A stretch of DNA of 64,000 nucleotides from Malacoraja senta (Eukaryota): contig CM075988.1 of assembly GCA_038087875.1 (NCBI GenBank), positions 12,402,001 to 12,466,000 on the forward strand, read 5' to 3'. Of this stretch, positions 268 to 63,402 are shown one piece after another. Made by a program: the position numbers and the translations under genes. Within the stretch, counting starts at the first letter, position 1. Every line of letters starts with the position of its first letter. A model generated the notes under the pieces. The model was given only the letters and a program-made list of their open reading frames with translations, was not told the DNA's origin and searched no databases.

Positions 268-895
268 TTAGATAGATACAAAATGCTGGAGAAATTCAGC
301 GGGACAGGCAGCATCTCGGGATAGGAATGGATGACGTTTCGGATCGAGACCCTTGTTCAGACTGAGTCAGGGAAGAGGGAGAAACAGAGATAAGGAAGTG
401 TAAGGTATGAAAATGTGCCAAAGGGGATGGAGAATAAGGAAAATGTAGATTAGGTCATTGTTAGATGGATTAATGGGAGGTGGTCTGGGAAGGATGCTCC
501 TCAAACTGCAGAGCATCCTGGACAATACAGCTCACCCCTCCATGACACATTGGTCAACCTGAAAATTACCTTCAGCAACAGACTGGTTCCACCAAGATGC
601 AGGACAGAACACCACATGAGATCCTTCTTCCCTGTGGCTATCAAACTGTACTACTCCTCCCTCTTCTGTCATGGGGTAGACTGCTTCCCCTCCCCTCCCC
701 TCCCCAATCTTTGCACATCCCCAATCCTTTCCACTCATCAATTTAATTAATTTTATGTTCCATGTATTTTGTGTTTTTAGCAGCTGGGATGAATAAAATT
801 CTATCATATCGCATCGTATTGTTAGTTAGGAGAAGGTAACAATCAACCAAACAGAGATAAAGTGTAATCAAGGACAGTCAGACTGGTCGGACTGC
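268..895 (-). mobile_element. Penelope-derived terminal-repeat element with hammerhead motif, split by a Rex1 insertion
   Basis: Family motif ...aaatgctggagaaattcagcgggacaggcagcatct...gacgtttcggatcgagacccttgttcagact, followed by a purine-rich stretch that resumes after 825 and matches 63085-63400. Confidence 0.7.
465..817 (+). mobile_element. Rex1/Babar LINE 3' fragment
   Basis: Translates to FSNRLVPPRCRTEHHMRSFFPVAIKLY, a Rex1-type ORF C-terminus. 3' UTR ends in aataaa plus short-repeat tail. TSD attgttag at 457-464 and 818-825. Confidence 0.7.
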
Positions 896-1023
896 TCTTA
901 ACCAGCTTTTTCTTGATGATATGATCATAGAGAAATGCTCCTCGGCAATGTAGTAAATTGGTCAATGGTATTAGTATTGGCTTATTGTTGCCATGTGTGA
1001 TGAGATACAGTGAACAACTATTT

Positions 1024-1336
1024 GGGCAGCACAGTGGCGCAGCAGTGGAGTTGCTGCATTACTGGGCCTGAGATCCGGGTTTTGATACGGACTATGAGTG
1101 ATTGTCTGCACGGAGGTTGTACATTCTCCCCATGACCTGTGTGGGTTTTCTCCGGGTACTCCGCTATCCTCCCACACTCCAAAGACGTACAGATTTGTAG
1201 GTTGATCAGCTTGGTATAATTGTAAATTGTCCCTAGTTTGTGTCAGATAGCGTTAGTGTGCGGGGATCGCTAGTCAGTGCAGACTCGGTGGGCTAAAGGG
1301 CCTGTTATTTGTGCTGCATCTCTAAACTAAGCTAAC
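1024..1336 (+). mobile_element. HE1-type tRNA-derived V-SINE
   Basis: gggcagcacagtggcgcagc head, V-domain (gtgggttttctccggg...cctcccacactccaaagacgtacag), CR1-like tail ending ctctaaactaa. Confidence 0.85.
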
Positions 1337-1623
1337 TCATGTCATAATGTGTGACAGTAAACATATGGATCATGGAAAGTTGCACTATTCTACATTTTCG
1401 CCACTATAGTTTTAATTGAAAAGTTTAAACTCTGCCTTTCATTGATTGAGGCTGAAACTAAAAATCTCATTAAAGCCATTTGGTATGACCGGTCCACTCT
1501 GTGGCAGAGAACAGACCCCAAGGTGTCTCAGTGTCAGTGTGTGGTAGTGAGCTGCTTTATCTCTCCACATTCATAAATTCAGCTTCCATCTGGTACAAAT
1601 TGTTTCTGCGTCTCCAGGCACTT

Positions 1624-1639
1624 GTGTGTGTGTGTGTGT
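1624..1639. repeat. (TG)n microsatellite
   Basis: Direct reading. Confidence 0.9.
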
Positions 1640-1852
1640 TTTTACCTCTCTGATTCAGTCTCCTCTTGCATCTGTTTGTTTGCAAGGCCCCCTCAAGGCT
1701 ACTGCATAACCCTCTGAAACTAAGTGGAAAAAAAACTTGTTTTAAGCAATTTGAATAAGAAGAGTCAGAGATGTTATCATGAGATTAAGGGAATCGTAGC
1801 AATGAGTAGTTAAAAGGTGAGCAAAAACTCTGGAGCCATTGTTGACGAAAAA

Positions 1853-2026
1853 CATAGACCATGGAATAATACAGCTCAGGAATAGACCCTTCAGCCCACA
1901 TTGTCCTAGCTGAACATGATACCAAATTAAACTAATGTCCTCTGCCGGCACGTGATCCATATCCCTCCATTTCTTGCATATTCACGTGCTAAACCTCTTG
2001 AATGCCACCGTCTTATCTGCCTCCAG
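1853..2026 (-). mobile_element. CR1 LINE 3' end fragment
   Basis: Reverse complement of the CR1 3' UTR (cccttcagccca..., atccatatccctcc) seen in other copies. Confidence 0.6.
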
Positions 2027-2034
2027 CAGATGTT

Positions 2035-2520
2035 AGCAGGGGTGATGTTATAGAGGTGTATAAAATCTTGAGGGGAATAGATAAGTTGAATACACAGTCT
2101 TTAACCCAGGATCAGGTAATCAAGAAGTGCAGGAAGGAACTGCAGATGCTGGTTTAAACCGAAGGGTCTCGACCCAAAACGTCATCTATTCCTTTTCTCC
2201 AGAGAATCCTGTCTGACCCACTGTTACTCCAGTTTTTTGTGTCTATCTAGGGTAATCAAGAACCTAGGTGTAAGATAAGAGGGGAGAGATTTAATAGGCA
2301 CCTGAGGGGAATTTTCATTTCACTCAGAAGGTAGTAAGTATATGGGATCAGCTGTCAGAGAAGGTAGTTGAGGACAGCACTTTAAAGACACTGGGACAGG
2401 TAAATGAATAGAAAAGGTTGAGAAGGATATGGGCCAAACGCAGGTAGATGGGGTATCTTGGTCGGCATGTACGATTTGGGGCAAAATTGCTTGTTTCTGT
2501 GCTGCAATACTCTATGAATC
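2035..2520 (+). mobile_element. CR1 LINE 3' fragment interrupted by a Penelope-derived insert
   Basis: ggggtgatgttatagaggtgtataaaatc (GD.IEVYKI) through 3' UTR ...tactctatga. Confidence 0.75.
2127..2250. mobile_element. Short Penelope-derived fold-back insert
   Basis: Two oppositely oriented pieces of the hammerhead-element family. TSD ggtaatcaagaa at 2115-2126 and 2251-2262. Confidence 0.75.
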
Positions 2521-3568: not shown

Positions 3569-3617
3569 ACACACACACACGCGCACGCATGCACACACAC
3601 ACACACACACACACACA
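3569..3617. repeat. Interrupted (CA)n microsatellite
   Basis: Direct reading. Confidence 0.9.
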
Positions 3618-4024: not shown

Positions 4025-4352
4025 TTTACTTTAGACTTCAAACCTTAGAGGTACAGCCTGGAAACAGGCCTTTCAGCCCACTGGGTCCATGCCGACTAGC
4101 GATCATCCTGTACACTAGCACTTTCCTACACGCACTAGGAACAATTTACAATTTTTCTTTTACCAATGCCAATTAATCTGCAAACCTGCACGTCTTTTTA
4201 GTGTGGGAGGAAACCGGAGCACCCGGAGAAAACCCACACCGTCACAGCGAGAACGTGCAAACTCCAGACGGACAGCACCCGTAGTCAGGATCAAACCCAG
4301 GTCTCTGGCACTATGAATCAGCAACTCTACTGCTGCACCACTGTGCCGCCCT
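4025..4352 (-). mobile_element. HE1-type V-SINE, full length
   Basis: Reverse complement of the head (gggcggcacagtggtgcagcagtagagttgctg; B-box-like gggtttgatcc), V-domain and tail. Confidence 0.9.
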
Positions 4353-5045
4353 ATTTTATATCCTTGAATCAAAATGTTTAACTTGAAATCACAATCTTAG
4401 CCTAGAAGCGGCCCAAGAACAACTTGTGCTAGTCAAATCATTCCATTGACGTGACTTGATGTCATCCAGTGTTAAATTACAGTTATCCTGCCTCTCTTGT
4501 GTGGGTGTGATTTTAAAAATAGGACTGCGTCACTTTAGCGTGGAATGTGTCGTGCAGCTGCTCTGGGTCTAACTGCTAATGTAATGCTGACTTGCAGCTG
4601 CCCTGCATCCATCAGGAACAGGATTGTGATTGGTGAAACTCACTTATCATCAGACCTTTGCAGTCTCCAGAGAGTCACTACCATTCCGTTTTAAAACTAT
4701 GTTCCAGATGTGAAGCACAGCCCTCTGTGAAACAATCTCCTTTAGCGGTATATGTACATGCGTCTGAGCCTCATTCTTGCATTTTCTGTCATTAATGTTT
4801 GGCTTTTTCACAACTCTATTCTGCCATCACAATGAGCTGGATCGTGCCTGCAAGGAATCTACAGCTCTGTTTTTAAATCCGATAGCTATTTTCCATTATG
4901 GTCTGATATCTTGTGAAGCAACGCCATATCTGACTTGCGTGGTAAACTACCTAGTTCAGTAGCCCCTGATCTTCCTGTCACCACCTTACTCCATAATTTC
5001 CCTGTGAAGTACCTTGAAAAGATTGCATCAATTGTTTATGGTGAA

Positions 5046-6134: not shown

Positions 6135-6420
6135 TTTAGTTCAGTTTAGTTCAGAGATACAGCGCAGAAACAGGCGCTTCGGCTCACAGAGCACACCGAC
6201 CAGCGTTCCCCACAAATTAACACTATCCTACACTGGGGACAATTTTTGCCATATACCAAGCCAATTAACCTACAAACCTGTGGGAGGTAACCAATGTCCT
6301 CAGAGAAAGCCCGTGTGGTCACAGGGAGAAGGTACAGACAAGCACCCATAGCCAGGATCGAACCCGGGTCTCTGCCGCTGTAAGTGCTGTAAGGCAGGAA
6401 CTCTACTGCTGCACCACCGT
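6135..6420 (-). mobile_element. HE1-type V-SINE
   Basis: Same family as 4025-4352. Confidence 0.85.
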
Positions 6421-6798
6421 GTTAATCCAATCTATAAAATGATCATGTAAACTATTTCCATAATAACAACCGGTTAGGATCCATTATAGGCAATCGGTCA
6501 CATTGTGTAGCTGTTTGGTCTGAGAGAAACACCAGCATTTATATATTGTACATCTAAAAGGAAGCAAGTTATAATGTAATAACTCGCACATTCTTACAAC
6601 ATAGAAGGAGGCTATTTGACCTATCAAGTCTCCAATTGAGACCAACCAATTGAGTTTTCCACGTTTCCCATTAACTATGTTCTATCACATGCATATCAAC
6701 TCCCTACCGATTCTTCTGTTCCCAGCTACGGCAGCGGTAATATACAGTTGAAAATTAATCAACTAGCATGCCTTGGGATGAGGTGGAAAACTGGAGCA

Positions 6799-7440
6799 CT
6801 AGCATTTATATCAAGAGGACTGGAATACAAAAACAGAGATGTAATGCTGAGGCTCTATAAGGTGCTGGTCAGGGTGCATTTGGAGTACTGTGAGCAAATA
6901 TGGGCCCCATATCTGAGGAAGGAAGTGTTGGACGGATGTGTTGGCTCTGGAGAGCGTCCAGAGGAGGTTTACAATAATTATTCCAGGAATGAGTGGGTTA
7001 GCATATGATGAGCGTTTGACAGCACTAGGCCTCTACTCGCTGAAGTTTAGAAGGTTGAGGGGGGACCTCATTGAAATTTACAGAATAATGAAAGGCATAG
7101 ATAGAGTGGATGTGGAAAGGATGTTTCCACTGGTGGGAGAGTCTCAGACCTGAGGTCATAGCCTCAGAATTATAGGACGCTCTTTTAGAAAGGAGGTGAG
7201 GGGGAATTTCTTTAGTCACAGGATAGTTAATCAGTCGAACTCATTGCCACAGAGAGCTGTGGGGGCCAAGTCAGTGGATATTTTTAAGGCAGAGATAAAC
7301 AAATTCTTGATTAGAACGGGTGTCAGGGTTATGGGGAGAAGGCAGGAAAATGGGATTAGGAGGCAGAGATCAGCCATGATTGAATGGCAGAGTTGACTCG
7401 ATGAGCTGAATCGCCTAATTCTACTCCTATAACTTGTGAA
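6799..7440 (+). mobile_element. CR1 (HER1-like) LINE 3' fragment, inserted in an older minus-strand SINE
   Basis: LAFISRGLEYKNRDVMLRLYKVLVR.HLEYC...VQRRFT...LRGDLIE.Y with frameshifts, then 3' UTR. SINE remnants at about 6600-6798 and 7441-7490. Confidence 0.9.
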
Positions 7441-8118: not shown

Positions 8119-9757
8119 CAGTGCCCTCCATAATGTTTGGGATAAACACCCACCACTTATTTATTTGCCTCTGTACTCCACAATTTGAGATTTATAATAG
8201 AAAAAGTCAATGGTTATAGTCTGCACATTGTCAAATTTTAATAATTTTTTTATACATTTTGGTTTCACCATGTAGAAATTACAGCAGTGTTTATATATCG
8301 TCCTCCCATTTCAGCGCACCATAATGTTTGGGACACAGCAATGTCATGTAAATGAAAATAGTCATGTTTAGCATTGTGTTGCATATCCTTTGATTGCAAT
8401 GACTGCTTGAAGTCTGCGATTCATGGACATCACCAGTTGCTGGGTGTCTTCTCTGGTGATGCTCTGCCAGGTCTGTATTGCAGCCATCTTTAACTTATGC
8501 TTGTTTTGGGGCCTAGTCCCCTTCAGTTTTCTCTTCAGCATATAAAAGGCATGCTCAATTGGGTTCAGATCGGGTGATTGACTTGGCCATTCAAGAATTG
8601 ACCTTTTTTTAGCTTTGAAAAACTCCTTTGTTGCTTTAACAGTATGTTTGGGATCATTGTCTTACTATAGAATGAACTGCCGGCCAATGGGTTTTGAGGC
8701 ATTTGTTTGAACTTGAGCAGATAGGATGTGTCTATACACTTCAGAATTCATTATGCTACTGCCATCAGCAGTTGTATCATCAATGAAGATAAGTGAGCCA
8801 GTACCTTCAGTAGCCAAGCATGCCCAGGCCATAACACCCCCACCACCATGTTTCACAGATGAGGTGGTATGCTTTGGATCTTGGGCAGTTCCTTCTCTCC
8901 TCCACAATTTGCTCTTGCCATCAGTCTGATATAATTTAATCTTCATCTCATCTGTCCACAAGAACTTTTTCCAGAATTGCAGTTGCTCTTTTAAGTACTT
9001 CTTGGCAAACTGTAACCTGGCCATCCTATTTATGCAGCTAACCAGTGGTTTGTATCTTGCAATATAGCCTCTGTATGTCCGTTCATTAAGTTTTCTGCAG
9101 ACAGTGGTCATTGACAAATCCACACCTGATTCCTGAGGAGTGTTTCTGATCTGTCGGACAGGTGTTTGGGGATTTTTCTTTATTATAGAGAGAATTCTTC
9201 TGTCATCAGCTGTGGAGGTCTTCCTTGGCCTGCCAATCCCTTTGAGATTAGTAAGTACTTTCTTTATTTTTAATGATGTTCCAAACAGTTGATGTTAGTA
9301 AGCCTAAGGTTTGGCTGATGTCTCTAACAGTTTTATTCTTGTTTCTCAGTCTCATAATGGCTTCTTTGACTTTCATTGGCACAACTTTGGTCCTCATGTT
9401 GATAAACAGCAATAAAAGTTTCCAAAGGTGATGGAAAGACTGGAGGAAAGACTAGGTGCTGAGAGCTCTCTTATACCTGCATTAAGGAGGCATTTAAACA
9501 CACCTGAGCAATTACAAACACCTGTGAAGCCATGTGTCCCAAACATTACGGTGCCCTGAAATGGGGGGACTATGTTTAAACACAGCTGTAATTTTTACAT
9601 GGTGAAACCAAAATGTATAAAAATATCCTTTAATAAAATCTGACAATGTGCACTTAAACCACATGTGATTTTTTTCTATTACAAATCTCAAATTGTGGAG
9701 TACAGAGGTAAATAAATAAATGATGGGTCTTTGTCCCAAACATTATGGAAGGCACTT
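8119..9757 (-). mobile_element. Tc1-family DNA transposon, full length, IR/DR-type TIRs of about 220 bp
   Basis: Left TA|CAGTGCCCTCCATAATGTTTGGGA mirrors right TCCCAAACATTATGGAAGGCACT. Inner direct repeats at about 8320-8338 and 9533-9552. Transposase lies between them; the right terminal bases and TA are eroded. Confidence 0.95.
8368..9397 (-). pseudogene. Tc1-like transposase (DD34E), disrupted
   Basis: MRTKVVPMKVKEAIMRLR..., LWTDE, KHGGGGVMAW, FIL**DNDPKHT...WPSQSPDLNPIE (34 residues between D and E), ends AVIAIKGYATQC*. In-frame TAG TAA at 8662-8667. Confidence 0.93.
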
Positions 9758-10199: not shown

Positions 10200-10740
10200 T
10201 TAAAAAGACACAAAGAGCTGGAGTAGCTCAACAGGTCAGGCAACAAAAGACAGACATAAAAGGCTGGAGTAACTCAGCGGGTCAGGCGGCATCTCTGGAG
10301 AATAGGCATAGGTGACGTTTCGGGTCGAGACCCTTCTTCAGACTGAGAGTCAGGGGAAAAGAGAATGAGAGAAATAGACGGTACTGAGGAGAAATGAATG
10401 GAATTCATGCAAAAGGCTGGTGAGCAGGAGGATTCACAGGGGGGGGGGGGTGCAGCAACAGAGAGTGTTGCAGTACTCTTGACGGAGAGAGGGATACCCC
10501 TCTGGAGAACATGAATAGGTGACGTTTCAGGTTGGGACCCTTCTTCAGTCATGATTATGGATGTGGGGCATGGGGTGAAGACAACTGGAAGAGAGGAGAG
10601 GCAGGACCGAGCACGGCAGGGCGCAGATGAGGGGGAGTTGATAGGCAGATGGATGGAACAAAGGCCAGATATTAAAACAGCATGTGTGGGACAGCGACGG
10701 ATTGAAGAGTTTCAAATTGTGAAGCCAGAGGAAGGAAGGT
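10200..10740 (-). mobile_element. Penelope-derived element with tandem partial terminal repeats
   Basis: Family motif occurs three times (about 10205, 10255, 10500), with hammerhead cores near 10314 and 10521. tatggtt at both flanks. Confidence 0.75.
10314..10341 (-). ncRNA. Minimal type I hammerhead ribozyme motif
   Basis: Minus strand reads CUGAAGA-A-GGGU-CUCG-ACCC-GAAAC-GUC: catalytic boxes, stem II, palindromic ACGU in place of stem III, GUC cleavage triplet. Confidence 0.7.
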
Positions 10741-12557
10741 ATGGTTCATCTGACCTTGGCTTCACTTCCACTCTCCTGCTTGCTGTTTCTCACCCTCATC
10801 CCCACTATAATCCACAATCAGTCATTTAAGCATGAATGTGTTTAAAATATATTTACTTACAGGAATTAAATTACAGTATGATAATATTATGTCTTCTACC
10901 CATTGATATCTTTAAAAGACCAACCTGTGTCCTCTGAAACATTGTCAAACGTCTCCAACCCAGAAATCAACTTGACTACATATGCTTTCACTTCATTGGA
11001 TTGATTAACTAATCGCTTTGCTGTATAATTCAAGGAGAGATCTTACAATAGTGTTTACAATGTCCAGGTTTCTTTTCCCAGAACCATTTTTTTGTACTTA
11101 TTCTCTCTGCATTTCGCTGACAAATCTCTGCATTTCCCCATTGCCTTTTGTTAATGAAATTCTGGCAGTAAGGGCTGTGAAAAGCTGTGCAGTAGCTGCT
11201 AATGATGGTGATTGTAACAGCGTTGTTGTCCACGGGTGTCAGCTGCAGCGGCCCGCGTATTTCAAGGAAAGCAACTAATTTTCATCCGAGTGCTTGTTTT
11301 ATCTCTTGGGATTTGAGTGTTCTGTTCAATCGTTTAGCACATTTGAGAAGCCCATTAAATTGAAGGACTCGGTGGCCAAGTAAGCAGGTTGATCCGTCAA
11401 TTCTAAAATTGTATGATGCATTTTATTTTCATCATTTAGATCATTGCCGTTTCAATAGAGTGTGCTATTTTTGGGAGATGTGTTCAGCTTAACATTTATT
11501 TAGTGGCGTGATGGAAGAATTGATCTCATGAAGTGCCGCATCAAGCTTAATTTCATTGAGTTTCAACATACATAGTGGTGAAAAGGTTACACAAGAAAAT
11601 CCCCAAGAAAAGGGAATGGGAATACTAAAAATGCCAGAATATGAGAAGGTTAATCTGGGAAAGAGATTTATCTTTATATTTGCTTCATTGATATATTTGA
11701 TTAACCCATTGTGCTTTTCATTATATGTGATATATATGTTATAGTGGACCAGCTGTTCTGTACACCTGGTGTGGATTCCTTGACCCAATGCTCACTGGTT
11801 GGTTTCTGGTCCAATGTACGTGAATGGTAACAGCACTATTGTATTTCCGAAGCTTCAGGAGGGAACCATTCCTGCTTATTGATTTCCTGCTCCTTTACAA
11901 ATCAATTTTCTCCTCTGGGAGTGCTTTGAGTAACGTTTCATGTTGAAGTTGCTTGTATTGCAATGGTTTACAGGAAAAGAACTATCAGACAATCTGTTAT
12001 TTTCTCAGACCAAGTCAATTCCTGTTAAGTGACTCTCATGATATACGTGCAATTTTCTCTTTCAATTTTGTTGAGGCATTGTGTTTTTCCAAGCTATTAC
12101 CTTTCTGTTTTCTTTTAATCTTCATTTAGTACTGAAGTTACTTTTTCAAACAAAATCCTTCTCTAACCAATTTGAGTCTTCATGTGCTAATTAACTTTGC
12201 ATCGAGAACTGAACATTTCACGTGCCAGTGGTTTGCTTAAGTGGTGTACAGTTAATTAAAACCGATGATGAAGTTGAAATAGCATACATTTTTAAGATCA
12301 TGGCAAATCCAATTTGCGGACAAGAGGTGGGGCAAATAAAGTAAATAATTGTAGAAACAAGAAGCATTTGACAAATATTTGGTAAAGCGAGATCCCATTT
12401 GTGTCTGGTGCAACATCTTTGGTCTTTGGATGAGATGGCTATCCAGGGAAAACAAAATAAAATTCACACAGAATTAAGGTACAGAAGATAGGGTTTTGTT
12501 ATGTTGGTTGACAAGCAGTGGAAAGGCAGTCTTGGTTATACACCAAAGAGTTTACTG

Positions 12558-12868
12558 TAGTTTAGTTGAGAGATACAGTATGAAAATAGGCCCTTCAGGC
12601 CACCGAGTCTGCGCCGACCAGCAATCCCTGTAGACTAACACTATCCCACGCACACTAGGGACAATTTACAATTTACAATTTACAATTTTACCAAGCCAAT
12701 TCACCTACAAACCTGTACGTCTTTGGAGTGTGGTAGGAAAACTGAGCTCCTGGAGAAAACCCACGCAGCTCATGGGGAGAACATACAAACTCCGTAAAAA
12801 ACAACATTCATAGTCAAGATCAAACTCGGTCTCCAGCTCTGTAAGGCAGCAACCATTGAACCACCTTT
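12558..12868 (-). mobile_element. HE1-type V-SINE with (ACAATTT)4 expansion
   Basis: Family match; repeat at 12661-12687. Confidence 0.85.
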
Positions 12869-22801: not shown

Positions 22802-23125
22802 GGGGCAGCACGGTGGCGCAGCGGTAGAGTTGCTGCCTTACAGCGCTTGCAGCGCCAGAGACCAAGGTTCGATCCTGACTACGGGTGCTATTTGCACGGA
22901 ATTTGTACCTTCTCCCTGTGATCTGCGTGGGTTTTCTCCAAGATCTTCGGTTTCCTCCCACAATCAAAGACGTACAGGTTTGTAGGTTAATTGGCTTGGT
23001 ATAGGTGTAAATTGTCCACAGTGGGTGTAGAATAGTGTTAATGTGCAGGGATTGCTGGTCAGTGCGGACTCGGTTGGCCGAAGGGCCTGTTTCCGCACTG
23101 TATCTCTAAACTAAACTGAACTAAA
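22802..23125 (+). mobile_element. HE1-type V-SINE, full length
   Basis: ggggcagcacggtggcgcagcggtagag (A box), ggttcgatcc (B box), V-domain, (ctaaa)n tail. Confidence 0.9.
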
Positions 23126-23903
23126 GGTGGACCATTCATTTCTTACTGCAGCCTACAACATTCTTCATAGTTACTCATGTAGCCAATTTTGATTCTGACT
23201 GCAAACTGTTTAATTATTGATACCATATAAAAGGTAATAACCCATAGTACACACCCTTCCAGCCAGTAAAACTCTATAATTGGCCAATCTTATTTTCCTT
23301 CCCCCAATGAGCCAATTTTAGACTCTGCCTGTTACTTTTTCTTGGATTGCTTGAACTTTAAGCTACCCGTGAGTTTAGTTGCTGTCACGTGTACCGAGGT
23401 GCAGTGAAGAGCTTTTGTTGCATGATAACCAGCCAGCGGAAAGACAATACATGATTACAATTGAGCTGTCCACAGTATACAGATCAATGATAAAGGAAAG
23501 ACCAGTGTGTGGGACTCAGTGAAAGACCATGCCGTTTGTGAGTGCTGATGTTGGCTGTAGCTATCAAGACCATCCTCAAGTTAAGAGAATGCAGATGTTG
23601 GAATCTTAAGCAAAACTAGGTGCTATAGGAACTCTACAGGTTAGGCTGCATCAGGGAGATGTATTTCTTCCACAGATGCTGCTTGACCTGAGGGTTCCTC
23701 CAGCATTTTGTGTTTTGCATCATCATTAACTTTGACTAAAATGCAAAAGCTTATTTTAGATGCTGGAGAATACAAAACATTTAAAAAACCAATAAGTATC
23801 AATATTCTATGGTGTTGAAGAACTGAAGGAAAATAATATTCTATCAAACATAATTTACATGATTGTTGTTCTCACCTCTTTCAAAAGATTTTTTTTAAAT
23901 AGC

Positions 23904-26937: not shown

Positions 26938-27008
26938 ATATCCTTTTGAAATTAATACTGGTATTGTTTTTTAAAGCTAAAATCTCAGAAGAGTTAACAT
27001 TAATTTCG
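26938..27008 (+). repeat. Left copy of the 71-bp direct repeat flanking the L1
   Basis: Matches 30856-30926 with 2 mismatches. Confidence 0.95.
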
Positions 27009-27049
27009 TTGTTTTTTTTAAATTCTGAACATAATCGCAGAATCTAATT

Positions 27050-30000: not shown

Positions 30001-30459
30001 CAAAATTTTACACAGATTATATTATTCAAAAACTAAAATTAATAAAATTTCCCCAATGTATCATCTATTTGCGATAAATGTCAATCTCAAAAAGCTACTA
30101 TAGCGCACTCATTTGTTTTTTGTTCAAAAATTCAAAAATTTTGGATTTAAATTTTTGAAATCTTTACAAAATTATTTAATATAAATCTGACACCAAAAGC
30201 AGAATGGATTATCTTCGGAACAACGGAAGATAGCCCTGAACTAAATGTGTTTCAAAAGAAATTAGTTGATTACGGATTAATAACTGGAAAAAAGCTTATC
30301 ATAAAATTCTGGAAAAACACTCCAATACCAACTATAAACATGTGGATTTCAAATATGTTTGAAACATTACACCTAGAAGAGATAAGACTCCTCCCGGCAG
30401 GCAAATCAGATCACTTCCATCTGACGTGGTCTGCATTTATAGAACTATTACAAGCATAA
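27050..30459 (+). pseudogene. L1 ORF2 (endonuclease-reverse transcriptase), disrupted
   Basis: ORFs 27227-28429 and 28442-30103 share one frame separated by a single TGA (MR*LLN). YADD reads NADD. Frameshifts near 27100-27230 and 30050; C-terminal piece at 30247-30459. Confidence 0.92.
28367..28420 (-). mobile_element. 54-nt L2-type 3' tail inserted in L1 ORF2
   Basis: Reverse complement aagtgactttgagtccttgaaaagcgctatataaataaaatgtataattattat. Removing it restores RYSSNN-MR(R)LLNIMHS. Confidence 0.7.
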
Positions 30460-39650: not shown

Positions 39651-39711
39651 GTTCTGAAGCACAACAATGAAATGCTTACTTGCAGAAGCACAACAGGTGT
39701 GCAAATATAGA

Positions 39712-39972
39712 GTGTTGGAAGGAACTGCAGATGCTGGTTTATACCAAAAATAGATACAACAAGCTGGAGTAACTCAGCGGAATAGGATAATCTCTGGAGA
39801 GAAGGAATGGGTGATGTTTTGGGTCAAGAACCTTCTTCAGAGTGATAAAGTGTCTCGACCCGAAACGTCACCCATTTCTTCTCTCCAGAGATGCTGCCTG
39901 CCCTGCTGAGTTATTCCAGCTTTTTGTGTCTATCTTCGGTTTAAACCAGCATCTGCAGTTCCAACCTACACA
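39712..39972. mobile_element. Penelope-derived near-perfect fold-back (arms about 125 bp)
   Basis: gtgttggaaggaactgcagatgctgg...ccttcttcag mirrored by ...cgacccgaaacgtcaccc...ccagcatctgcagttccaacctacac. Confidence 0.85.
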
Positions 39973-41797
39973 TTTTGAATATAACACTCCTGTGTCCATC
40001 CCAACACTCAGTGTGTTCTCTTTAGTGCTATTATTGGGAGGCTGCAGTAATTTTGCTGTTCAATTGAATTCTGCTGTCCTAGACTGATGCAATGAAGCTC
40101 ATGTCTGGTCCAAGTTCCAATTCACTGCCTGAGTGAATGTTGTCAATAAAAATACCTAATAGTTAATTGCCAAACTGTGAACAGAAAAAAAACAAATTAA
40201 GGGCAAAATAGATGAGTTTTTGATTTTTTTAAATAGATAATTCATATTTCACATTCCTTGATTTTCCAACAATAGTAAAACCAATATGAATTATATTTCA
40301 TGTTTGTAATAGTTGTAGGAGATTATTCAACACTTATTAAACTTATCAGGTCATTAAACATGCATTCAACTGGAATGGACCACCAGCTTTGGCATGTGTT
40401 TCAAAGTCATGTTGATGAGGGAAATACTGTGCAACCTTCATGAATACAATCATGTATCTCTGTTTAATTGAATATAAGTGGTTGACAAAGTTGCTGCTTG
40501 GGCTACACTTGAAAATGATGAATGTAGATTGTGAACTTATGGTTGCAATGTTTTTACCGCTCACGGTGAACAAGAGAGTTATTCTCATCATTTTCAATCT
40601 GTAAACCAGCAAGCTGTCTTCAGGCTTCAGCTACAATTTAGCATGATGCCAAGAAATAAGATTGCTGACTAAGATTGTGGAGAGTTAAACAACAGTTGTG
40701 CGAAGCTCTGGTATGAGCTCATGTGAAGATCATGTAAAAGACGTTATAGGTTTGAGGAAAGTGCAGTGAGATTTAGAAGAATTAAATTTAGATTCCAATG
40801 ATTAAATTACGAGAGACTGAACACATGAGGATTGCACTTCTTAGCATTTTGATGACTAAAGGGGATTTTGTCACTTCTTTCTTGAGTTAGATCAGGAGAA
40901 ATTTCTTCCCTAATTCTGAAGTCACAGACTGGCTGCTTTGGTTTAAAAGTTTGAGCACATCTTTCAAGATTGAAATAATGTAATACTTCTCTATGGAGTG
41001 GATGAGAAGAGTTCTCATCTACAATTAATTCATGGCAATTTTTTAAAAATATGAAATTAAGGAACAATAGATATCAATAACAAGGCCAAAGTTATTGTGG
41101 GATACAGGAAGACAGTAAATATTTGGTTTAAACCAGCATATGCAGTTCCTTCCTACACAAGACAATATGTGACATTATGTCACATACCATCTGTGGGCTT
41201 GTTGAATGATACAGATGATACCAAGCAACCAACTCTGCTTCCAAGCATTCCAGTTGTGTGCATACTTAGATAGGACACATGTTGTACCCACTTGCATGGG
41301 CTGGGATGAAATCTGTGTAACCAGAAAAACGTGGCATTTTTGTTAAAGCAAGTTGTTGAGGATGAAACCACGATAATCTACTTGTCGCCAAGGATAATTG
41401 GAGTAACAGTAAAACAGTACAGCACAGGAGAGGCCCTTCAGCCCACAATGTCTGTGACAAACATGATGCCAAGATTAACTAATGTCATCTACCTGTGCGT
41501 GATCCATTTTCCTCCATTCCCTGTACATCCATATGCCCATTTAAAAGAATCTTAAATGCCACTATTAAATCGGTTTATTATTAGTTTTCACTCTATGCTG
41601 ATGTAACTGAAACTTCTGATGAGGAATCGGTTTACAGTACAACCACAGTTTTTGTGACACCAAGAACATTTGTCACATCATGGTACTGCGTAAACTGGAC
41701 ATTTCACTTTAACATAACATGGAGTGTTCAACATTTAACTCCGCAGAAGCCTTGACAAACTAGTCTTTGATGCCTAACACTTTTCTGTTGATCACAT

Positions 41798-42053: not shown

Positions 42054-42642
42054 CTTCTAATGTATTGTTTAAAATCTGTGGGTTTGGAAGCTCAGAGAGG
42101 ACCATATTCTATACTGTAGACTGCAATGCATAATTTAAAACTTCAAATTTATTATTGTCTACTACAGTTGGAAAAATGCACACTTCAGGAGGAAGATGGA
42201 TTTGTATACTCCCAGCTCATTTATGCTGGAAAAAAAATGCACTGAGGCAATTTGTGCTCATTAAAATCTGCTTAATATTCATATGTTTAATTGTCCGTAG
42301 GAGTCAGTCACTACCTGCATAGTGATCATTTCTCCTCATCCAGACTTCTGCTCCAGCATGCAAATAATCTCCAGATACTTGACTCAGATTTGCTCCATTT
42401 GAGTCCACTTGAGTCCCATATTTAAGATATGATAGATCACATTAAAAAAAAACGAGCATTGTAGTCTGTGTAATTTTGTAACGTTGATTGCAATTTATTT
42501 AAAAAAAAAAAAATCCATCATTGGACCTGTGGGCATGTGACAGTGTTTAATATGATTTGTCTTTTTATCCAATTTTACCGAAGCAAAATAGTTTTGCTTC
42601 TGAAATATTCAAATCAATGTCGGTCAAGTCTCAAAACTAATT

Positions 42643-42792
42643 TTGTAGGAAAGAACTGCAGATGCTGGTTTAAATTGAAGGTAGACACAAAATGCTGGAG
42701 TAACTCAGCGGGAGAGAGAAGGAATGGGTGACATTTCGGGTCTCGACCCGAAGCATCACCCATACCTTCTCTCCAGAGATGCTGCCTGTCAC
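42643..42792. mobile_element. Penelope-derived fold-back element
   Basis: Symmetry centre cgggtctcgacccg; TSD tctcaaaactaatt at 42629-42642 and 42793-42806. Confidence 0.8.
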
Positions 42793-44777: not shown

Positions 44778-45070
44778 TGTCATAGAGGCATACAGCATAA
44801 AAACAGGCCATTCAGTCCAACATGCCCATGCTGACCAAGATTCCCCATCCTCATTAGTCCCAATTACCCCTATTCGCATTTGGCCCATATCCCTCTAACA
44901 CGCTCCTATCCATGTACCTGTCCAAATACAGACACAAAAAGCTGGAGTAACTCAGTGGGACAGGCAGCATCTCTGGAGAAAAGGAATTGGTGACATTTCG
45001 GGTCGTGACCCTTCTTCAGACTGAAAGTCATGGGAAAGGGAAACAAGAGATATATGTCCAAATGTCTTTT
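44778..45070 (-). mobile_element. CR1 3' tail with a Penelope-derived insert (44928-45054)
   Basis: TSD tgtccaaat at 44919-44927 and 45055-45063. Confidence 0.75.
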
Positions 45071-49249: not shown

Positions 49250-50325
49250 AAGGGACCAGAGGGATTGGGTGCGTAAGTCGATGCAAATGGCTAGTACGTT
49301 GAGGAAACGTCAATAAGGTACGCACAATCCTGAGCTTTATCAATAGAGACAAAGTTGGGAAGTCATACTTTACTAAACACAGACACTTTCTAGTGTACAG
49401 GTACATGGATAGGACAGGATTCGAGGGATATGGGAAAAGGCTGGCAGGTGGGATTAGTGTCGATGGGGCATCTTGGTCAGCTCAGCAAATTGGCATGAGG
49501 GGCATGCTTCTGTGCTGTATGACTCAATGACACACACTCAGCCTGATTGTGTGTTCTATTCTGGTCATTTTCTCATAGAAAGGACGTGAAGGTACTGAGG
49601 AGAGAGATGACCTAACATAAGTACATGATGAGAGGGTAGACACAAAATGCTAGAGTAACTCAGCGGGTCAATGAGCATCGCTGGAGATAAGGAATAGGTG
49701 ACTTTTTGGGTCGAGACCCTTCTTCAAACTGAGTAAGGGTCTAGATCTGAAACGTCACCTATTCCTTTTCTCCGGAGATGCTGTTTGAACTGCTGAGTTA
49801 CTCCAGCATTTTGTGCCTATCTCCGGTGTAAACCAGCATCTGCAGTTCCTTCCTCACAAAAATGATGAGAGGTCTGGACAGAGAGGACGGTAGGAGGTTG
49901 TTCCCAATGGTGGTGGGCTTGAGGACAAGTTACAGGTAGAAAACCTGGAGGTCTGTATTTTCCAGAGATTAGAAGAATGGGAGGAGAGCACTGCAAGATT
50001 TTAAGAGCTTCGACAGGATCGATTCAAGTATGATGTTTCCCTGGCTGAAGAGTCTGGAACTGAGGATCACGGTCTCAGAAGAAGGGTAGGCCATTTAGGA
50101 CAGAGCTCAGGAGAAATTACTTCATGCAGAAGATGGTACACCATTGGCATTCTTGGCCCAGAAGGATGGAAAACAGCCATAGTCTTTATTCAGGACAACA
50201 GATTTCTTGATAGTCAAGAAAGGAATAAATATGGGGACAATGCAGGAATGTGGCATTAAAATTAAAGATCAGCCATGTTCTTAATTAATAAGCTTATAAG
50301 GCCAAATGGTTGCCTTCTGCCACAT
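49250..50325 (+). mobile_element. Old, fragmented CR1 with nested inserts
   Basis: Scattered CR1 text (cagagggattgggt, gctttatcaatagagac, agaagggtaggccatttaggac, agatcagccatg). Confidence 0.6.
49636..49861. mobile_element. Penelope-derived fold-back element
   Basis: Inverted arms; TSD atgatgagagg at 49625-49635 and 49862-49872. Confidence 0.8.
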
Positions 50326-50381
50326 CTAATTGCTTCCTTTTGTTATATTTTTAAAGTCCATCAAGATTTGATCCATCAAGA

Positions 50382-50476
50382 GTCTGAAGAAGGGTTTCGG
50401 CCCAAAACGTTGCCTATTTCCTTCACTCCATAGATGCTGCTGCACCCGCTGAGTTTCTCCAGCATTTTTGTGTACC
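50382..50476 (+). mobile_element. 95-bp hammerhead unit, copy 1
   Basis: GTCTGAAGAAGGGTTTCGGCCC...TGTGTACC; GAAA box mutated to AAAA. Confidence 0.8.
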
Positions 50477-50725
50477 TAAAATATTTGATCAAGAACTGGA
50501 TTAACCAACTTCAGATGGATTGATAAATAGATATTGTTTTAAAAAAAAAAAATCTTCTTCTGAAACCTTGATCAGCATATTTTGTCCTGGAAAATTACTT
50601 ACTATTTCCAATATGAGCATTGGTGGAAAACACTAAATACAGTGAAAAGGCAAAACATAAATTGCAGAAAGATATCTGTGTTTTTGAAGAAAAGAAGGTC
50701 CTAACCTGAAATATCACCTATCACC

Positions 50726-50820
50726 GTCTGAAGAAGGGTTTCGGCCCGAAACGTTACCTATTTCCTTCGCTCCATAGATGCTGCTGCACCCGCTGAGTTT
50801 CTCCAGCATTTTTGTGTACC
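50726..50820 (+). mobile_element. 95-bp hammerhead unit, copy 2, inside an older copy of the same family
   Basis: 3 differences from copy 1; atcacc on both flanks. Confidence 0.8.
50728..50755 (+). ncRNA. Minimal type I hammerhead ribozyme motif
   Basis: CUGAAGA-A-GGGU-UUCG-GCCC-GAAAC-GUU. Confidence 0.7.
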
Positions 50821-50969
50821 ATCACCTATCCATGTTCTCCGGGGATGCTGTCTGACCTGCAGTGTCGCTCCAGCAACTTGTGCCTTTTTAAAAAATTGTA
50901 AACCAGCATCTGCAACTCCTTGTTTCTACAAGACAGATTAGTGTTTTATTAGAATGAAACCTCCACCTA

Positions 50970-51429: not shown

Positions 51430-52333
51430 AGCTGTGAGGAGGATGCTAGGAGACTGCAAGGTGACTTGGATAGGCTGGGTGAGTGGGCAAATGTTTGGCA
51501 GATGCAGTATAATGTGGATAAATGTGAGGTTATCCACTTTGGTGGCAAAAACAGGAAAGCAGACTATTATCTAAATGGTGGCCGATTAGGAAATGGGGAG
51601 ATGCAGCGAGACCTGGGTGTCATGGTACACCAGTCATTGAAAGTAGGCATGCAGGTGCAGCAGGCAGTGACGAAAGCGAATGGTATGTTGGCCTTCATAG
51701 CAAGAGGATTTGAGTATAGGAGCAGGGAGGTTCTACTGCGGTTGTACAGGGTCTTGGTGAGACCACACCTGGAGTATTGTGTACAGTTTTGGTCTCCAAA
51801 TCTGAGGAAGGACATTATAGCCATAGAGGGAGTGCAGAGAAGGTTCACCAAACTGATTCCTGGGATGTCAGGACTTTCATATGAAGAAAGACTGGATAGA
51901 CTTGGCTTATACTCGCTGGAATTTAGGAGATTGAGAGGGGATCTTATAGAAACGTACAAAATTCTTATGGGCTTGGACAGGCTAGATGCAGGAAGATTGT
52001 TCCCGATGTTGGGGAAGTCCAGGACAAGGGGTCACAGCTTAAGGATAAGGGGGAAATCCTTTAAGACCGAGATGAGGAAAAACTTTTTCACACAGAGAGT
52101 GGTGAATCTCTGGAACTCTCTGCCACAGAGGGTAGTTGAGGCCAGTTCATTGGCTATATTTAAGAGGGAGTTAGATGTGGCCCTTGTGGCTAAATGGATC
52201 AGGGGGTATGGAGAGAAGGCAGGTACGGGATACTGAGTTGGATGATCAGCCATGATCATATTGAATGGCGGTGCAGGCTCGAAGGGCCGAATGGCCTACT
52301 CCTGCACCTATTTTCTATGTATCTATGTATCTA
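51430..52333 (+). mobile_element. Young 5'-truncated CR1 (HER1-like) LINE; ORF2 C-terminus open for 256+ codons
   Basis: ORF 51466-52236 WQMQYNVDKCEVIHFG...RPHLEYCVQFWSP...VVNLWNSLP; 3' UTR; (ctatgtat)n tail. Confidence 0.95.
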
Positions 52334-53700: not shown

Positions 53701-53701
53701 T

Positions 53702-55215: not shown

Positions 55216-55617
55216 TTTTAGGTTGTAAAGAAAAATATGAGAAAGATACAGATGGAAAATCAGTTGATTTTTCGCTTTGCAGCATTTTCCAGTGGAGGAA
55301 AATTGAAAAACTATAATTGCTAAAATCTGACATCAAAATCCAGAAAAGGCTGGAAGCATTCAGCAGGTTCAGCAGCATCTGTGGAAAGAGAAACCGACTG
55401 ATGTTTCAGGTTAAAGACTTTCCTTCCAACTATAAAGGACTTTGCCCTGAAATGTTAACTTTGTTTTTCATTCCACAGATGCTGCCTGACCTGCGGAAAC
55501 TGGCATTTTGGTTTTTTTTACATTTTGTTTATGTCCAAACCTCCAAGCCTTTGAGTAGACTGCAACCAGGTGTGACTGGAATAGGGAAGGGTGGTCAGAT
55601 GGAACAGGGCAGGGAAG

Positions 55618-59232: not shown

Positions 59233-59251
59233 ATTTTTTTCTGTATCATAT

Positions 59252-59600: not shown

Positions 59601-59953
59601 CAACATTACTGCTGCACCATTGTGCCACCACTGTGCTGGCATTCACTTGCACAAATGCTAAACTATCGGGCATGCATCTTTCATCAGTCAGTTCCCCAAA
59701 TACACGAGGGCTGAGGATGCAATGTGGGACTGGCAACTAACAAGGGGAAATCGAGACATGCACCAGTCACAAACTAATTGTCACGTTGCAAAAGCTCAGG
59801 AGGAATCAATATCTTAGCTCGTAACTATAGTTTCCCTGGCGTACATATCTCAGAAGAATAAATTAGTAAATTGGATCATCACAGGTGATTGAAATCAAAG
59901 AAAATACTTAAAAATAAACTGCACTGTAGATCAAACACAAGAAAAACTGAAAA

Positions 59954-60207
59954 TGTAGAAGCAAGGAACTGCAGATGCTGGATAACACAAAAGGTCACAA
60001 TGTGCTGGAGTTACTCAACGGGTCGGGCAGCATCTTTGGTGAACATGCATAGGTGATTTTTTTCTGTTGGGATATTTCTTCAGAATCCTCTTCCAGCTTT
60101 CTTACCAACCCTTCAATGTAAAGAAGGATCTCAACCCGAATCACCTATCCATGTTGTCTGGAGATGCTGCCTGACCCGCTGAGGTACTTCAGCACTTTGT
60201 GTCCTTT
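59954..60207. mobile_element. Penelope-derived fold-back element
   Basis: Inverted arms with a short spacer; acaagaaaa on both flanks. Confidence 0.75.
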
Positions 60208-61096
60208 ACAAGAAAACCTAAGACAGTTCAAGGAATAGTTTTACCAGTAACGAAGCAATGACATGTAATTTTGCAGAAAATATTTGTGAAAGTACAGGTT
60301 TGAAGGTGCTCAAAATATTTCTTGTATAAAAATTACTATCAATTTGTCCAGTAAAAATGCAAGCAGAAAGCAAATCAGTAACAACATGAATATTACACGT
60401 CAACAGCATTACCATATTGAATTATTTGCATGCCCATGCATTAAATAGTGTTGTAAACAACTGTTATTCTTCATTCTCGTTCAGAAGAGATTGTAGTGGG
60501 AGGGGAGGAAACATGAAATGTATGGAGAGATAAGATATGTACTATTCAATTTTGACCGCGCAGGGTTGGGGAAGGTTGATTGTTGGAACTTGCATTGTAA
60601 ACCTCTAAGCCGTACCTCCTTTAGTACATGCATTATATAAAGCTAACGGGTCTGCCTGTTTACCCTGTAATTAAATATCACAGCAGTGCTTCTACTCCAT
60701 TTGACAACTTAAGCAGGTAACAGGAAGCCTTCCCTTCAAAGTCACCAGATTCAATCATACAAAGTGAATTTTAGTTCTGACCATTAAATTGCATATGGAA
60801 ATCTGCACCATCTGGTCACAATTTTTCACTAAATTATGAGATGTGGCTGCATTAGTCATGGCAGAAATTCCAGGCTATTGTAAAAATAACCTGTTCTGTT
60901 ATTTGCAAAATCTCTTCAATGCTCGACCTTTTAAAAGGAAAATCAGCCTCTACTGACGCGATTATAGGTTTATTCATGTTGTGTACAAAGTCTGGTGCAA
61001 ATATTGAGAGTTATTCTAACAAATGCGTTTGTTTGGATAATACAGATATTTCCACTGAAATCAGAGTTTGCTAATTATGAAACTTTAACTAATTCA

Positions 61097-61226
61097 GACT
61101 GAAGAAGTGTCTTGACCCGAAACGTCACCTATTCCTTCGTTCCATTGATGCTGCCTCACCCGCTGAGTTTGTCCAGCATTTTTGTCTACCTTCGATTTTT
61201 CTAGCATCTGCAGTTTTTTCTTAAAC
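61097..61226 (+). mobile_element. Penelope-derived hammerhead element
   Basis: ctgaagaagtgtcttgacccgaaacgtcacc...gcatctgcagtt. Confidence 0.8.
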
Positions 61227-61500
61227 ATGATGGTAGAGGGGTGGGTTCCTGCAACTTTTACAGGTACTTGCAATGGGTTTCACTTGGTACAGATTCACTT
61301 AGTACAGATTCAGTGAGCAGATTTCCTATCTCTCTATACATTTTTTTTTGACGAAGAAGACTGGATGCAAGGGGACAAAGGTATGTCTCAGATAGTTTCG
61401 GTTGCTTCCGAATTAATTTTGTTAAGGGTGGAGGGAAGTGGAATTGTCTTTTCTCAGCCGCAATAAATCTAGAGGTCAAATAACCTTTCTGAGCTGTAAA

Positions 61501-61650
61501 CACGAGATGTTGAACTAAAAGCACAAAGCGCTGAAGGAACTCAGCAAGAGACGAGTCTGAATGAGGGTCCTGACTCAATGTGCCACCTGTTCATTTCCTC
61601 CACAGATATTGTCTGATGTTGGAGTCCTTCAGCAATTTGTGGGGTATTTG
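61501..61650. mobile_element. Old Penelope-derived fold-back element
   Basis: TSD ttctgagctgtaaa at 61487-61500 and 61651-61664. Confidence 0.7.
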
Positions 61651-61704
61651 TTCTGAGCTGTAAATTGTAACAATACTTCTAACCCAATAACCTAAACTTA
61701 TTGG

Positions 61705-61965
61705 TAAATTGTTGGCAGCTCAGTCATTTCTGAGTCAGGAAATTCCAGGTTCAAATCCCACACCAGAAATCTGGGCACCAAAATCACAGTGATGTTGCAC
61801 ATTTGGAATGCTGTACAGTCATGGGTGCCATAGAGACATCACATTGCTTGGCATAAATGATCCCACTACACTATCTTCGTGAAGAGCTGGGGTGATAACC
61901 GAGGCATTGTGCTCAATATGCTTCAGTCAATATTTCTTAAATGAAATATTTTGGTCATATTGATG
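61705..61965 (+). mobile_element. DeuSINE/SacSINE1-like ancient SINE
   Basis: tctgagtcagg...ggttcaaatcccac.ccaga (tRNA-like B box) followed by gatcccactacactat.ttcg.gaagagc.gggg, typical of the Deu domain. Confidence 0.55.
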
Positions 61966-62287
61966 TTTATTCCAACTGGATCTGGATGTGGAATGTGTCA
62001 TGTCTGACATTATCACTGTGAATCCCACTCCCCATCAAGGATTTCCATGAGCTTTGCAGTCCCCCTAGCCAGGAAATTAAAACAGTTTGGGGAATCTTCC
62101 CAACTTTGGTGGGTTTGCATCCTCCCTCTCTAAAGCATGAAATGAATAGATGCCTCTTGATGCCACACCAAAGTGGGATCTTCACCATCAGGGACCCTCT
62201 TTTTATCTACAGCCCTTCAACCAGATGGCCTCTCACAGTTAACCAACCGGTTCCAGGGTGCCACAGGTTTGACATCTTGCATTAACC

Positions 62288-62775
62288 TAGAGTCATAGAG
62301 TGATACAGTATGGAAACAGGCACTTCGGCCCAACTTGCCCACACATGTCACGGCTACACTAGTCCCACCTGCCTGCATTTGGTCCATATCCCTCCAAACC
62401 TGTCCTATTCATGTACCTGTCTAACTGTTTCTTAACCGTTGGGATAGTCACATCCTCAACTACCTCCTCTAGCAGCTTGTTCTATACAGTCACCACCCTT
62501 TGTGTGAAAATGTTACCCCTCGGATTCCAATTAAATCTTTTCCCCTTCACGTTAGACCTATGTCCTCTGGTCCCTCGATTCACCTACTCTGGGCAAGCGA
62601 GTCTTTACATCTACCTGATCTATTCCTCTCATGATTTTGTACACCTCTATAAGATCACCCTCATCCTCCTGCACTCCAAGGTATAGAGTCCCAGCCTACT
62701 CAACCTCTCCCTCTAGCTCAGATGCTCTAGTCCTGGCAACATCTTTGTAAATCTTCTCGGTACCCTTTCCAGCTT
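62288..62775 (-). mobile_element. CR1 LINE 3' fragment
   Basis: Reverse complement ...RGDLIEVYKIMRGIDQV...FTQRVV; (actctatg)-type tail. Confidence 0.88.
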
Positions 62776-63084
62776 GTCAGCCTGATTTACGAGAGGTTCT
62801 ATGGGGTTGTAGCCTGCATCCAAAAGCTGAAGTTTATGCCATCAAGAGTGGAAATTAGTTTTGCAAGTCAGGGACTGCCAGCAATACATCAGGCACAAAG
62901 TGCTTGGTCCAGTTTCCCCAGCCATTTCTACAACTTCACCTGGAAATGATTTCAAGAATATTCTAATCTGGGATTATCAATAAACTAATCTCATGATTAT
63001 CAATAAACTACGATAATAAAAAAAATAGATGTTGTATAATCTGAGCAATGTTATAACATTAATAATGAAAAGGGCAACTAGTAA

Positions 63085-63402
63085 AATACACAAAAAATCC
63101 TGGAGTAACTCAGCGGGACAGGCAGCATGTCTGGAGAGAAGGAATGGGTGATGTTTTGGGTCGAAATCCTTCTTCAGACTGATGTCAGGTGAGTGGGAGG
63201 TATACAGTTAAGGAAGTGTATAGATAAGGAACTGTAAGGTGTGAAAACAAGACAAAGAGAAGGCAAATCAAGGAAAATGTGGAATAGATCATTGTTCGGA
63301 GACGGTAACACCAAAACAAACAGAGATAAAATGTAGTCGGAGACAGTAAGAATGGTCAGAGACTGGGAAGGGGGAGGGGATGAAGAAAGAGGAAAAGCAA
63401 GT
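63085..63402 (-). mobile_element. Long Penelope-derived terminal-repeat element
   Basis: Hammerhead-family motif plus about 220 nt of purine-rich extension shared with 268-895. Confidence 0.75.

Follow-up and report, generated by a model that had tools for sequence, protein, structure and literature searches.

A 64,000-nt stretch of the Malacoraja senta genome (assembly GCA_038087875.1, contig CM075988.1, positions 12,402,001 to 12,466,000 of the forward strand; hereafter the window) carries on both strands, from 261 to 63401, a dispersed family of 50 short pieces of at least five subfamilies of differing age, some of which carry a minimal hammerhead ribozyme motif. These pieces are almost certainly fragments of the pseudo-long terminal repeats (pLTRs) of Penelope-like retrotransposons, apparently of the Neptune type. 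The explanation that best accounts for all observations, to which we give a probability of roughly 80%, is that reverse transcription started in the 5′ leader of the parent element and that the hammerhead was copied along as a passenger. An initial annotation of the window had described instead a separate retrozyme-like element. Its assignment of the motif to the Penelope-type minimal type I hammerheads holds, by way of the parent element and of related loci, while the separate element is not supported: longer copies continue into the GIY-YIG end of a Penelope open reading frame (ORF), copies occur as dispersed singles or inverted pairs and not in tandem, and their 5′ ends are not enriched at the cut site.

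A first profile, built from seven window copies, gave 47 matches in the window, and its extended form 50-51. Fourteen of the 50 matches form seven head-to-head pairs, leaving 43 units, and merging of split pieces yields about 40 insertions, close to the approximately 35 copies first counted. Unpaired copies number 23 on the minus and 13 on the plus strand. No profile match was obtained in 664 kb of reversed sequence, and the descriptor of the intact core found 75 cores in 1.46 Mb against 0 in five shuffles. The core is spanned by 30 of the 50 matches and is complete in 6 under a loose rule (all catalytic letters and at least three stem II pairs), while the strict descriptor is passed by 5, at 10341, 10548, 24812 and 45019 (−) and 50728 (+). 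With so few complete cores, and with the CpG letters G12, C15.2 and G16.2 mismatched in 19-27% of copies, the proposal that the core is the best-kept part of the repeat is not confirmed. The two 28-nt motifs that the proposal relied on are nevertheless exact, at 10314-10341 (−) and 50728-50755 (+), including stem II, the extra A after A9 and the ACGU palindrome. The size range of 100-550 bp was too wide: the longest single copy measures 322 bp (63080-63401), and the upper figure probably reflects two adjoining copies of different subfamilies near 10200-10740.

The genome-wide rate was sampled in 60 spaced 10-kb stretches of the 16 largest contigs, which hold 241 matches in 600 kb, or 0.40 per kb with both halves of each pair counted. 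The earlier estimate of roughly one copy per 2 kb is thus slightly too high for the genome. Extrapolated to the 1.94-Gb genome, this rate corresponds to approximately 780,000 pieces, and a search of the whole genome with an exact pattern of the intact core returned 67,871 matches, whereas the control pattern had none.

Upstream of the repeat, longer copies elsewhere in the genome continue across a pyrimidine-rich segment and reach the 3′ end of a reading frame for a GIY-YIG domain, whereas no window copy extends into the ORF and no ORF piece was found in the window. The 68-aa GIY-YIG end has 80,876 first-look candidates genome-wide, and upstream of it lie pieces of reverse transcriptase (RT), followed by long open frames. 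At locus L120 (G000:C8:4003500-4013000) we identified a full element, in which direct repeats of 244 bp, 98.4% identical and each with a core, flank a frame of 1233 aa with the motifs DKG and YIDD, a C-X4-C-X2-C linker (residue 1099), a GIY-YIG-type motif and LHPGGLN. In its upstream pLTR the core lies about 160 nt, and the predicted cut about 135 nt, before the first ATG. The N-terminal part of this ORF is unusually long (L120:2886 to about 4290, some 470 aa), mostly proline-rich and internally repeated, and precedes the region common to relatives of 700-950 aa. Of 7996 proteins scored against the frame, 578 are related to it at E ≤ 1e-20, and those listed include Pfam matches to RT and/or GIY-YIG; fragments of other copies gave Pfam matches under the cut-off. 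In 49 distinct copies, sequence joins the ORF-end motif to a downstream core, with untranslated regions (UTRs) of approximately 84-245 nt in the direct links. The parent would belong to the Neptune clade, judging from the linker motif and from the clades reported in vertebrates; a linker of this kind marks Neptune/Nematis-type elements (PMC8557442). Family sequence is also present in assembled contigs of four sequencing runs of other organisms, searched with L120:6200-6900.

The anatomy of the insertions was analysed in 690 matches from 1.46 Mb; for clustering, 17 identical rows were left out and 312 full-span copies were used. Of the 690 matches, 271 are arranged head-to-head and 18 tail-to-tail. 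The 3′ ends fall into two classes about 33 nt apart, with 226 copies ending at the short position, 278 carrying the additional tail and 186 ending elsewhere; among 134 pairs, 62 unite one end of each class, whereas both ends carry the tail in 9 and both are short in 1. Duplicated flanks of 7-14 bp accompany 26 of 108 short copies, compared with 2 of 108 controls with mismatched flanks. Inverted copies, a tail and target duplications have all been described for Penelope-like elements (PMC8557442, PMC3846280), and in Anolis Poseidon the RT begins internally at two sites, which accounts for the tail (PMC11167929).

The 5′ ends were mapped with inverted partners masked, and 389 of the 419 unpaired copies could be used. 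Relative to C3, 141 ends lie at −15 to −1, 69 at 0 to +23 and 12 at +24 to +31, the predicted cut being at +27/+28; a further 33 lie at +32 to +55, 29 at −39 to −16 and the remainder further out. Short copies (121 compared) agree with the parent at rates of 0.76, 0.67 and 0.60 at −1, −2 and −3, and agreement drops to 0.31 and 0.34 at −4 and −5, whereas in 90 long copies it stays at 0.80-0.91 over the same positions. This step is seen in all five main subfamilies and sets the 5′ boundary at the A of TCAGT, 3 nt before C3. Because the 5′ ends cluster 3 nt upstream of the core, and not at the cut site, the template was probably uncut RNA. The A of TCAGT belongs to what we take to be an initiator-like site, and CGTCA at +28 to +32 from it is presumably a counterpart of the downstream promoter element (DPE). 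An initiator-like TCACT occurs in rotifer pLTRs (PMC3846280), and Penelope has an internal promoter (PMC2377424).

The process that we propose would begin with the element's own RT starting inside the 5′ leader of the uncut transcript, at two internal sites, as in Anolis Poseidon, that would give the two 3′ ends, located about +92 and +127 from C3. The enzyme would then run off the 5′ end of the transcript, the A of TCAGT being the putative RNA polymerase II start, and would copy the hammerhead as a passenger into products of approximately 100 or 135 bp. Those copies that reach further upstream would be ordinary 5′ truncations begun from the downstream pLTR. Once inserted, copies would decay, mainly at CpG, and the hammerhead would be kept through selection on active source elements, where it would probably cleave the RNA of the element itself, weakly and with the help of dimer formation or a protein, and not regulate the host. 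Its central step, the production of most pieces from uncut RNA by run-off at the initiator-like start, is in our judgement somewhat more likely than not.

Several observations weigh against this explanation. The start site is placed by DNA ends and an initiator-like motif, not by RNA ends, and the trace expected of a cap-derived G is weak: G stands at −4 in 13 of 28 copies, and among the first 100 listed of 1657, counted by hand, G occurs in 40 and A in 42, while tandem junctions can also add a G at this position. TCAG-T-CTGA is a small palindrome, at which the enzyme could equally stall or the strand fold back. Assignment to a clade used a linker motif and not a tree. Non-CpG letters of the core mismatch in 5.4% of cases, compared with 7.3% for invariant letters downstream (pooled p 1e-4, per-site p 0.07), and there may thus be a small selective effect on the copies themselves. 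Finally, this particular hammerhead may not cut at all, because its helix I has 2 bp, whereas 28 of 37 matches in related elements have 3-6 bp.

The UTR just upstream of the core has, in all subfamilies, a pyrimidine tract ending in CAG (for example at window 10342-10414), and several subfamilies have a GT at the ORF stop, which together with the CAG resembles a possible intron, although spliced forms were not observed. The possibility that this CAG is a 3′ splice site, behind a pyrimidine tract as in D. virilis Penelope, was considered and rejected, as the short copies retain AGT and have no common upstream sequence. A GT-AG joint was found in none of the 15 cases listed, of 31, in the comparison of L120:6200-6900 with assembled contigs of other organisms.

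We then considered whether the hammerhead is real. The parents have the features of a minimal type I hammerhead, namely CUGANGA, GAAA-N-N-UH, an extra base after A9, the G10.1-C11.1 pair and a palindromic stem III, but helix I, typically of 4-5 bp in the minimal hammerheads of Penelope-like elements, has 2 bp in parents and window copies alike. An Rfam search, carried to E 10, gave 12 matches, all under the gathering scores and none to a hammerhead. Evidence comes from outside the family, from 80 loci kept out of 462 related ones from metagenome contigs, of which 33 carry the motif on the coding strand. There are 37 sense matches, compared with 5 antisense and 1-3 in shuffles; a few that fall inside ORFs are probably due to chance. 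These loci show different, fully paired stems, U3-A8 swaps, longer palindromes and, in 28 of the 37 matches, a helix I of 3-6 bp; the descriptor demands pairing in stem II, but forces neither the longer palindromes nor pairing in helix I. At the level of the element class these comparisons suggest that the hammerhead is genuine and under selection. Within the family the case is different. The initial annotation saw a stem II that varies while keeping its pairing, but the difference that it cited is a one-sided change from U-A to U-G between subfamilies, and the double changes in 28 window copies amount to 4 cells, a score reached by 253 of 500 shuffles. In the 312 copies covariation likewise does not exceed that of shuffles.

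The history of the core within the family agrees with a model in which selection acts on source elements and their copies then decay. Subfamilies are 6-21% diverged from their centres, and the fraction of intact cores drops with divergence, from 33/51 to 30/119, 15/59, 6/31 and 0/42. The centres of the main subfamilies keep every catalytic letter, apart from the CpG-decayed centres of the oldest clusters. In the comparison of core conservation, which used 302 of the 312 full-span copies, mismatches affect 9.5% of stem II cells, and in the largest subfamily all 11 core letters are kept in 47% of copies, while matched sets of downstream letters reach 42 ± 8%. Searching with the pattern of an older variant yielded 27 matches and no new stem.

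It could be argued that the motif no longer has catalytic activity and persists as a relic, chiefly for its role as promoter sequence (the initiator and downstream element) or as a protein-binding hairpin. The short helix I and the lack of covariation within the family would agree with this view, as would the ACGT that the conserved Penelope promoter element RGACGTGY has in common with stem III (PMC2377424). Against it, the main subfamily centres retain all catalytic letters, with the exception of the oldest clusters noted above, the fold persists in related elements whose stems differ and which have swapped U3-A8, and a 2-bp helix I is also found in D. virilis Penelope (PMC4209133). We therefore regard this alternative as doubtful, although it is the one to be taken most seriously. 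The minimum-energy fold contains no hammerhead in the parent's leader or in the 50728 copy, and the cores at 10341 and 10548, the sole close same-strand intact pair in the window, would need a fold about 20 kcal/mol worse than the minimum. In vitro, monomers of minimal hammerheads did not cut and dimers cut weakly (PMC4209133), the Anolis Poseidon hammerhead cuts only with protein (PMC11167929), and the role of the hammerhead in Penelope elements has been called unknown (PMC7761336). On balance, real cleavage of the parent RNA in some context is somewhat more likely than not.

A different origin of the 5′ pile-up would leave the Penelope descent of the repeats intact: if the TCAG-T-CTGA palindrome caused fold-back, self-priming or a switch of template, or if an antisense template was used, the pile-up would be uninformative on both start site and cutting. 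The junctions of head-to-head pairs also concentrate here (112 of 263 at −15 to −1), paired copies retain C−4 and T−5 (0.61 and 0.55), as the palindrome predicts, and self-priming on an antisense template has been proposed for rotifer Penelope (PMC3846280). Unpaired short copies, in contrast, end at −3, without the letters at −4 and −5 that a fold-back would need, and show a slight excess of G at −4. We regard this alternative as unlikely, and run-off at the transcript start remains our preferred account.

In its fullest form, which we put forward tentatively, the run-off explanation would make the repeat swarm a genomic footprint of Penelope copying in vivo, in which capped, uncut RNA is run off from two start sites in the leader, the first 31 nt combine promoter and hammerhead, and the ribozyme serves to remove the cap from the mRNA of the element itself, as a switch, and has no part in replication. 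Each run-off product would hold the full promoter and both start sites, and thus could be re-copied in trans; if true, this would be a direct route from a pLTR to an element like a short interspersed element (SINE) or to a retrozyme.

Whether the family has already taken this route, with short pLTR copies being themselves transcribed and re-copied in trans by the Penelope enzyme as a non-autonomous SINE-like or retrozyme-like element, can be assessed from the copies. The short ones hold the initiator-like site, the DPE-like CGTCA and both 3′ ends, and occur at least as often as long copies; the internal promoter of Penelope (PMC2377424) and the mobilisation of sequence in trans by pLTRs (PMC3846280) agree with such a route, and retrozymes have been proposed to derive from pLTRs (bioRxiv 10.64898/2026.07.22.740005). 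Against this, short and long copies, compared with only 16-42 copies per side, show no diagnostic differences in two clusters, and a third has a single weak site (7/23 vs 0/18). The window contains no head-to-tail tandem in which two or more consecutive units have a complete hammerhead, only 3 same-strand neighbours lie within 1 kb among the 75 intact cores of the 1.46 Mb, and 5′ ends are not enriched at the cleavage site (12 of 389, against 141 of 389 just upstream of the core). At L041:2674-3066 (G000:C4:46642173-46642565) we observed seven head-to-tail 50-bp units of the core alone, ending in a normal copy, and shorter tandem arrays of core pieces are present in L004 and L084. The L041 array is a possible seed of a retrozyme-like array, but its units lack ACGU or G12, most of them reading ACAU instead of ACGU. 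Taken together, these data make a self-propagating short element improbable.

The effect on host genes was analysed in 80 stretches (L134-L213, 800 kb) that lie between matched exons in 13 myosin and 10 ion-channel gene spans and were assumed to be intronic. All matches divide into 214 sense and 185 antisense, unpaired ones into 130 and 101 (p 0.065), intact ones into 32 and 24, and intact unpaired ones into 22 and 11 (p 0.08). By gene, 12 spans favour sense, 7 favour antisense and 4 are tied. The slight, non-significant excess of sense copies runs opposite to the usual expectation. Two control repeats are also unbiased (85/103 and 153/136), and for this reason only a strong strand effect is ruled out. 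The proposal that host transcripts are shaped by intact sense copies, which would cleave pre-mRNAs as dimers or with other assistance, is very improbable: the 67,871 intact cores, the weak cutting of dimers in vitro and the small excess of core conservation speak for it, but there is no sense depletion within the 23 gene spans and hence no support for such cutting, monomers did not cut in vitro (PMC4209133 for both assays), and the sole close pair in the window needs the unfavourable fold described above. The data suggest rather that host genes tolerate intact sense copies. A Pfam search with 150 of the 154 open stretches of at least 75 aa in the window found only transposon domains above the cut-off, and thus no host gene, although short exons would escape it.

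The individual copies in the window illustrate these classes. The complete core at 10314-10341 (−) lies in a copy (10243-10414) that keeps about 73 nt of the pyrimidine-rich upstream UTR, and the complete core at 10521-10548 (−), 207 nt upstream of it, belongs to an older subfamily and has a G-U pair at 10.1-11.1. A short copy with tail at 24680-24815 (−) has a complete core (24785-24812) and an 8-bp flanking duplication, while the copy with a short 3′ end at 44920-45055 (−) has, in its core (44992-45019), a U-G wobble replacing the CG of ACGU. Two young copies stand on the plus strand, one at 50717-50821, with a complete core (50728-50755) and 97.1% identity to the L120 pLTR, and one at 50381-50476, 97.9% identical to L120:6664-6759, in which G12 has become A by CpG decay. 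The first of these (50724-50821 as an insertion) is nested, within 50690-50930, in an older member of the family and is flanked by a 10-bp duplication, and its insertion point lies just downstream of the GUH position of the older copy; this is a single case. The short copy with tail at 61091-61230 (+) has all core letters (61099-61126) and one mismatch in stem II. The longest single copy (63080-63401, −) has a broken core and 224 nt of upstream UTR, stopping just before the ORF stop, and the copy at 261-468 (−) keeps about 108 nt of upstream UTR and is broken at G8. The seven head-to-head inverted pairs are located at 39711-39975 (joint at the 5′ edge of the core, both cores broken), 49626-49861 (one short and one tail end), 42638-42790 (joint within stem II), 32011-32209 (older subfamily, one short and one tail end), 59953-60207 (older subfamily), 55308-55498 (very old) and 23579-23727 (very old, without core).

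Other repeats share the window. A near-complete ORF2 of a long interspersed element (LINE), with one stop in 968 codons and an RVT_1 match (E 3e-26), occupies 27197-30100 (+) within the AT-rich stretch 26000-30000, and looks, as we would assume, L1/Tx1-like. A Tc1/mariner transposase remnant lies at 8371-9294 (−; HTH_Tnp_Tc3_2 E 5e-16, DDE_3 E 4e-8). A second abundant repeat of about 300 bp (1024-1337, 4036-4358, 6135-6421, 12551-12853, 22802-23127 and others), with 23 matches in the window and 371 in 1.46 Mb, has a tRNA-like head by eye, although ARAGORN found no tRNA in it, and resembles the elasmobranch HE1 SINE. LINE 3′ fragments, which we take to be CR1-like, are found at 6802-7438, 24830-25596, 30998-31456, 33034-33937 and 51430-52333, and the hammerhead copy at 24812 adjoins one of them.

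Both motif and host element are already known, as minimal hammerheads in Penelope pLTRs have been published (PMC4209133). Our literature search found nothing devoted to this family or to the −3 boundary, with Repbase and most subscription papers outside its reach, and paper supplements may list the family. Its usefulness lies in scale and geometry: with some 68,000 intact cores and dated remnants numbering several hundred thousand, what the hammerhead does in Penelope elements can be tested at the level of a population. As judged from the 5′ ends, the RNA that is copied is not delimited by cutting, in agreement with the in vitro work on Anolis Poseidon. Since near-intact parents exist, direct assays of the promoter, the RT start sites and cleavage are feasible.

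Compared with the minimal hammerheads of metazoan pLTRs (PMC4209133), the motif has the same core, extra base between 9 and 10.1, G10.1-C11.1 pair and palindromic 15.2-16.2, the same presence in both pLTRs and the same occurrence mostly as single dispersed motifs from truncated elements. That paper reports such hammerheads in fish Neptune, Poseidon and Xena, and the main text that we examined names none from cartilaginous fish. Helix II and helix I have 4 and 2 bp here, compared with 7-8 and 4-5 bp in Schistosoma, and the 67,871 intact cores compare with counts, by the descriptor of that study, of approximately 4,000 for coelacanth and 9,000 for Xenopus. The parent matches the endonuclease-bearing Penelope-like elements (Neptune/Nematis) in its single ORF with RT and C-terminal GIY-YIG endonuclease, in the direct pLTRs around this ORF and in the CX2-5CxxC linker between the two domains, and the 690 matches add the inverted 5′ copy, the optional 30-40 bp tail and the short target duplications. 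It differs from the Neptune/Nematis elements in the available text of PMC8557442 and PMC3846280 by its very many pLTR-only pieces and by the sharp boundary at −3, which that text does not describe.

The Poseidon element of Anolis carolinensis (PMC11167929) offers the closest parallel for the copying process, with two internal RT start sites explaining the tail, uncut RNA as template and a hammerhead dispensable for insertion. It belongs, however, to a different clade, and its ORF begins within stem II, whereas the cut site here lies about 135 nt upstream of the first ATG. The animal non-LTR retrozymes (PMC7229834, bioRxiv 10.64898/2026.07.22.740005) are likewise non-coding, pLTR-related and equipped with a type I hammerhead, but form head-to-tail tandems with a hammerhead per unit and circular RNAs. 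The copies described here are instead singles or head-to-head pairs, continuous with an ORF when longer. The family thus lacks the defining features of retrozymes, with which it shares a motif and probably also its ancestry.

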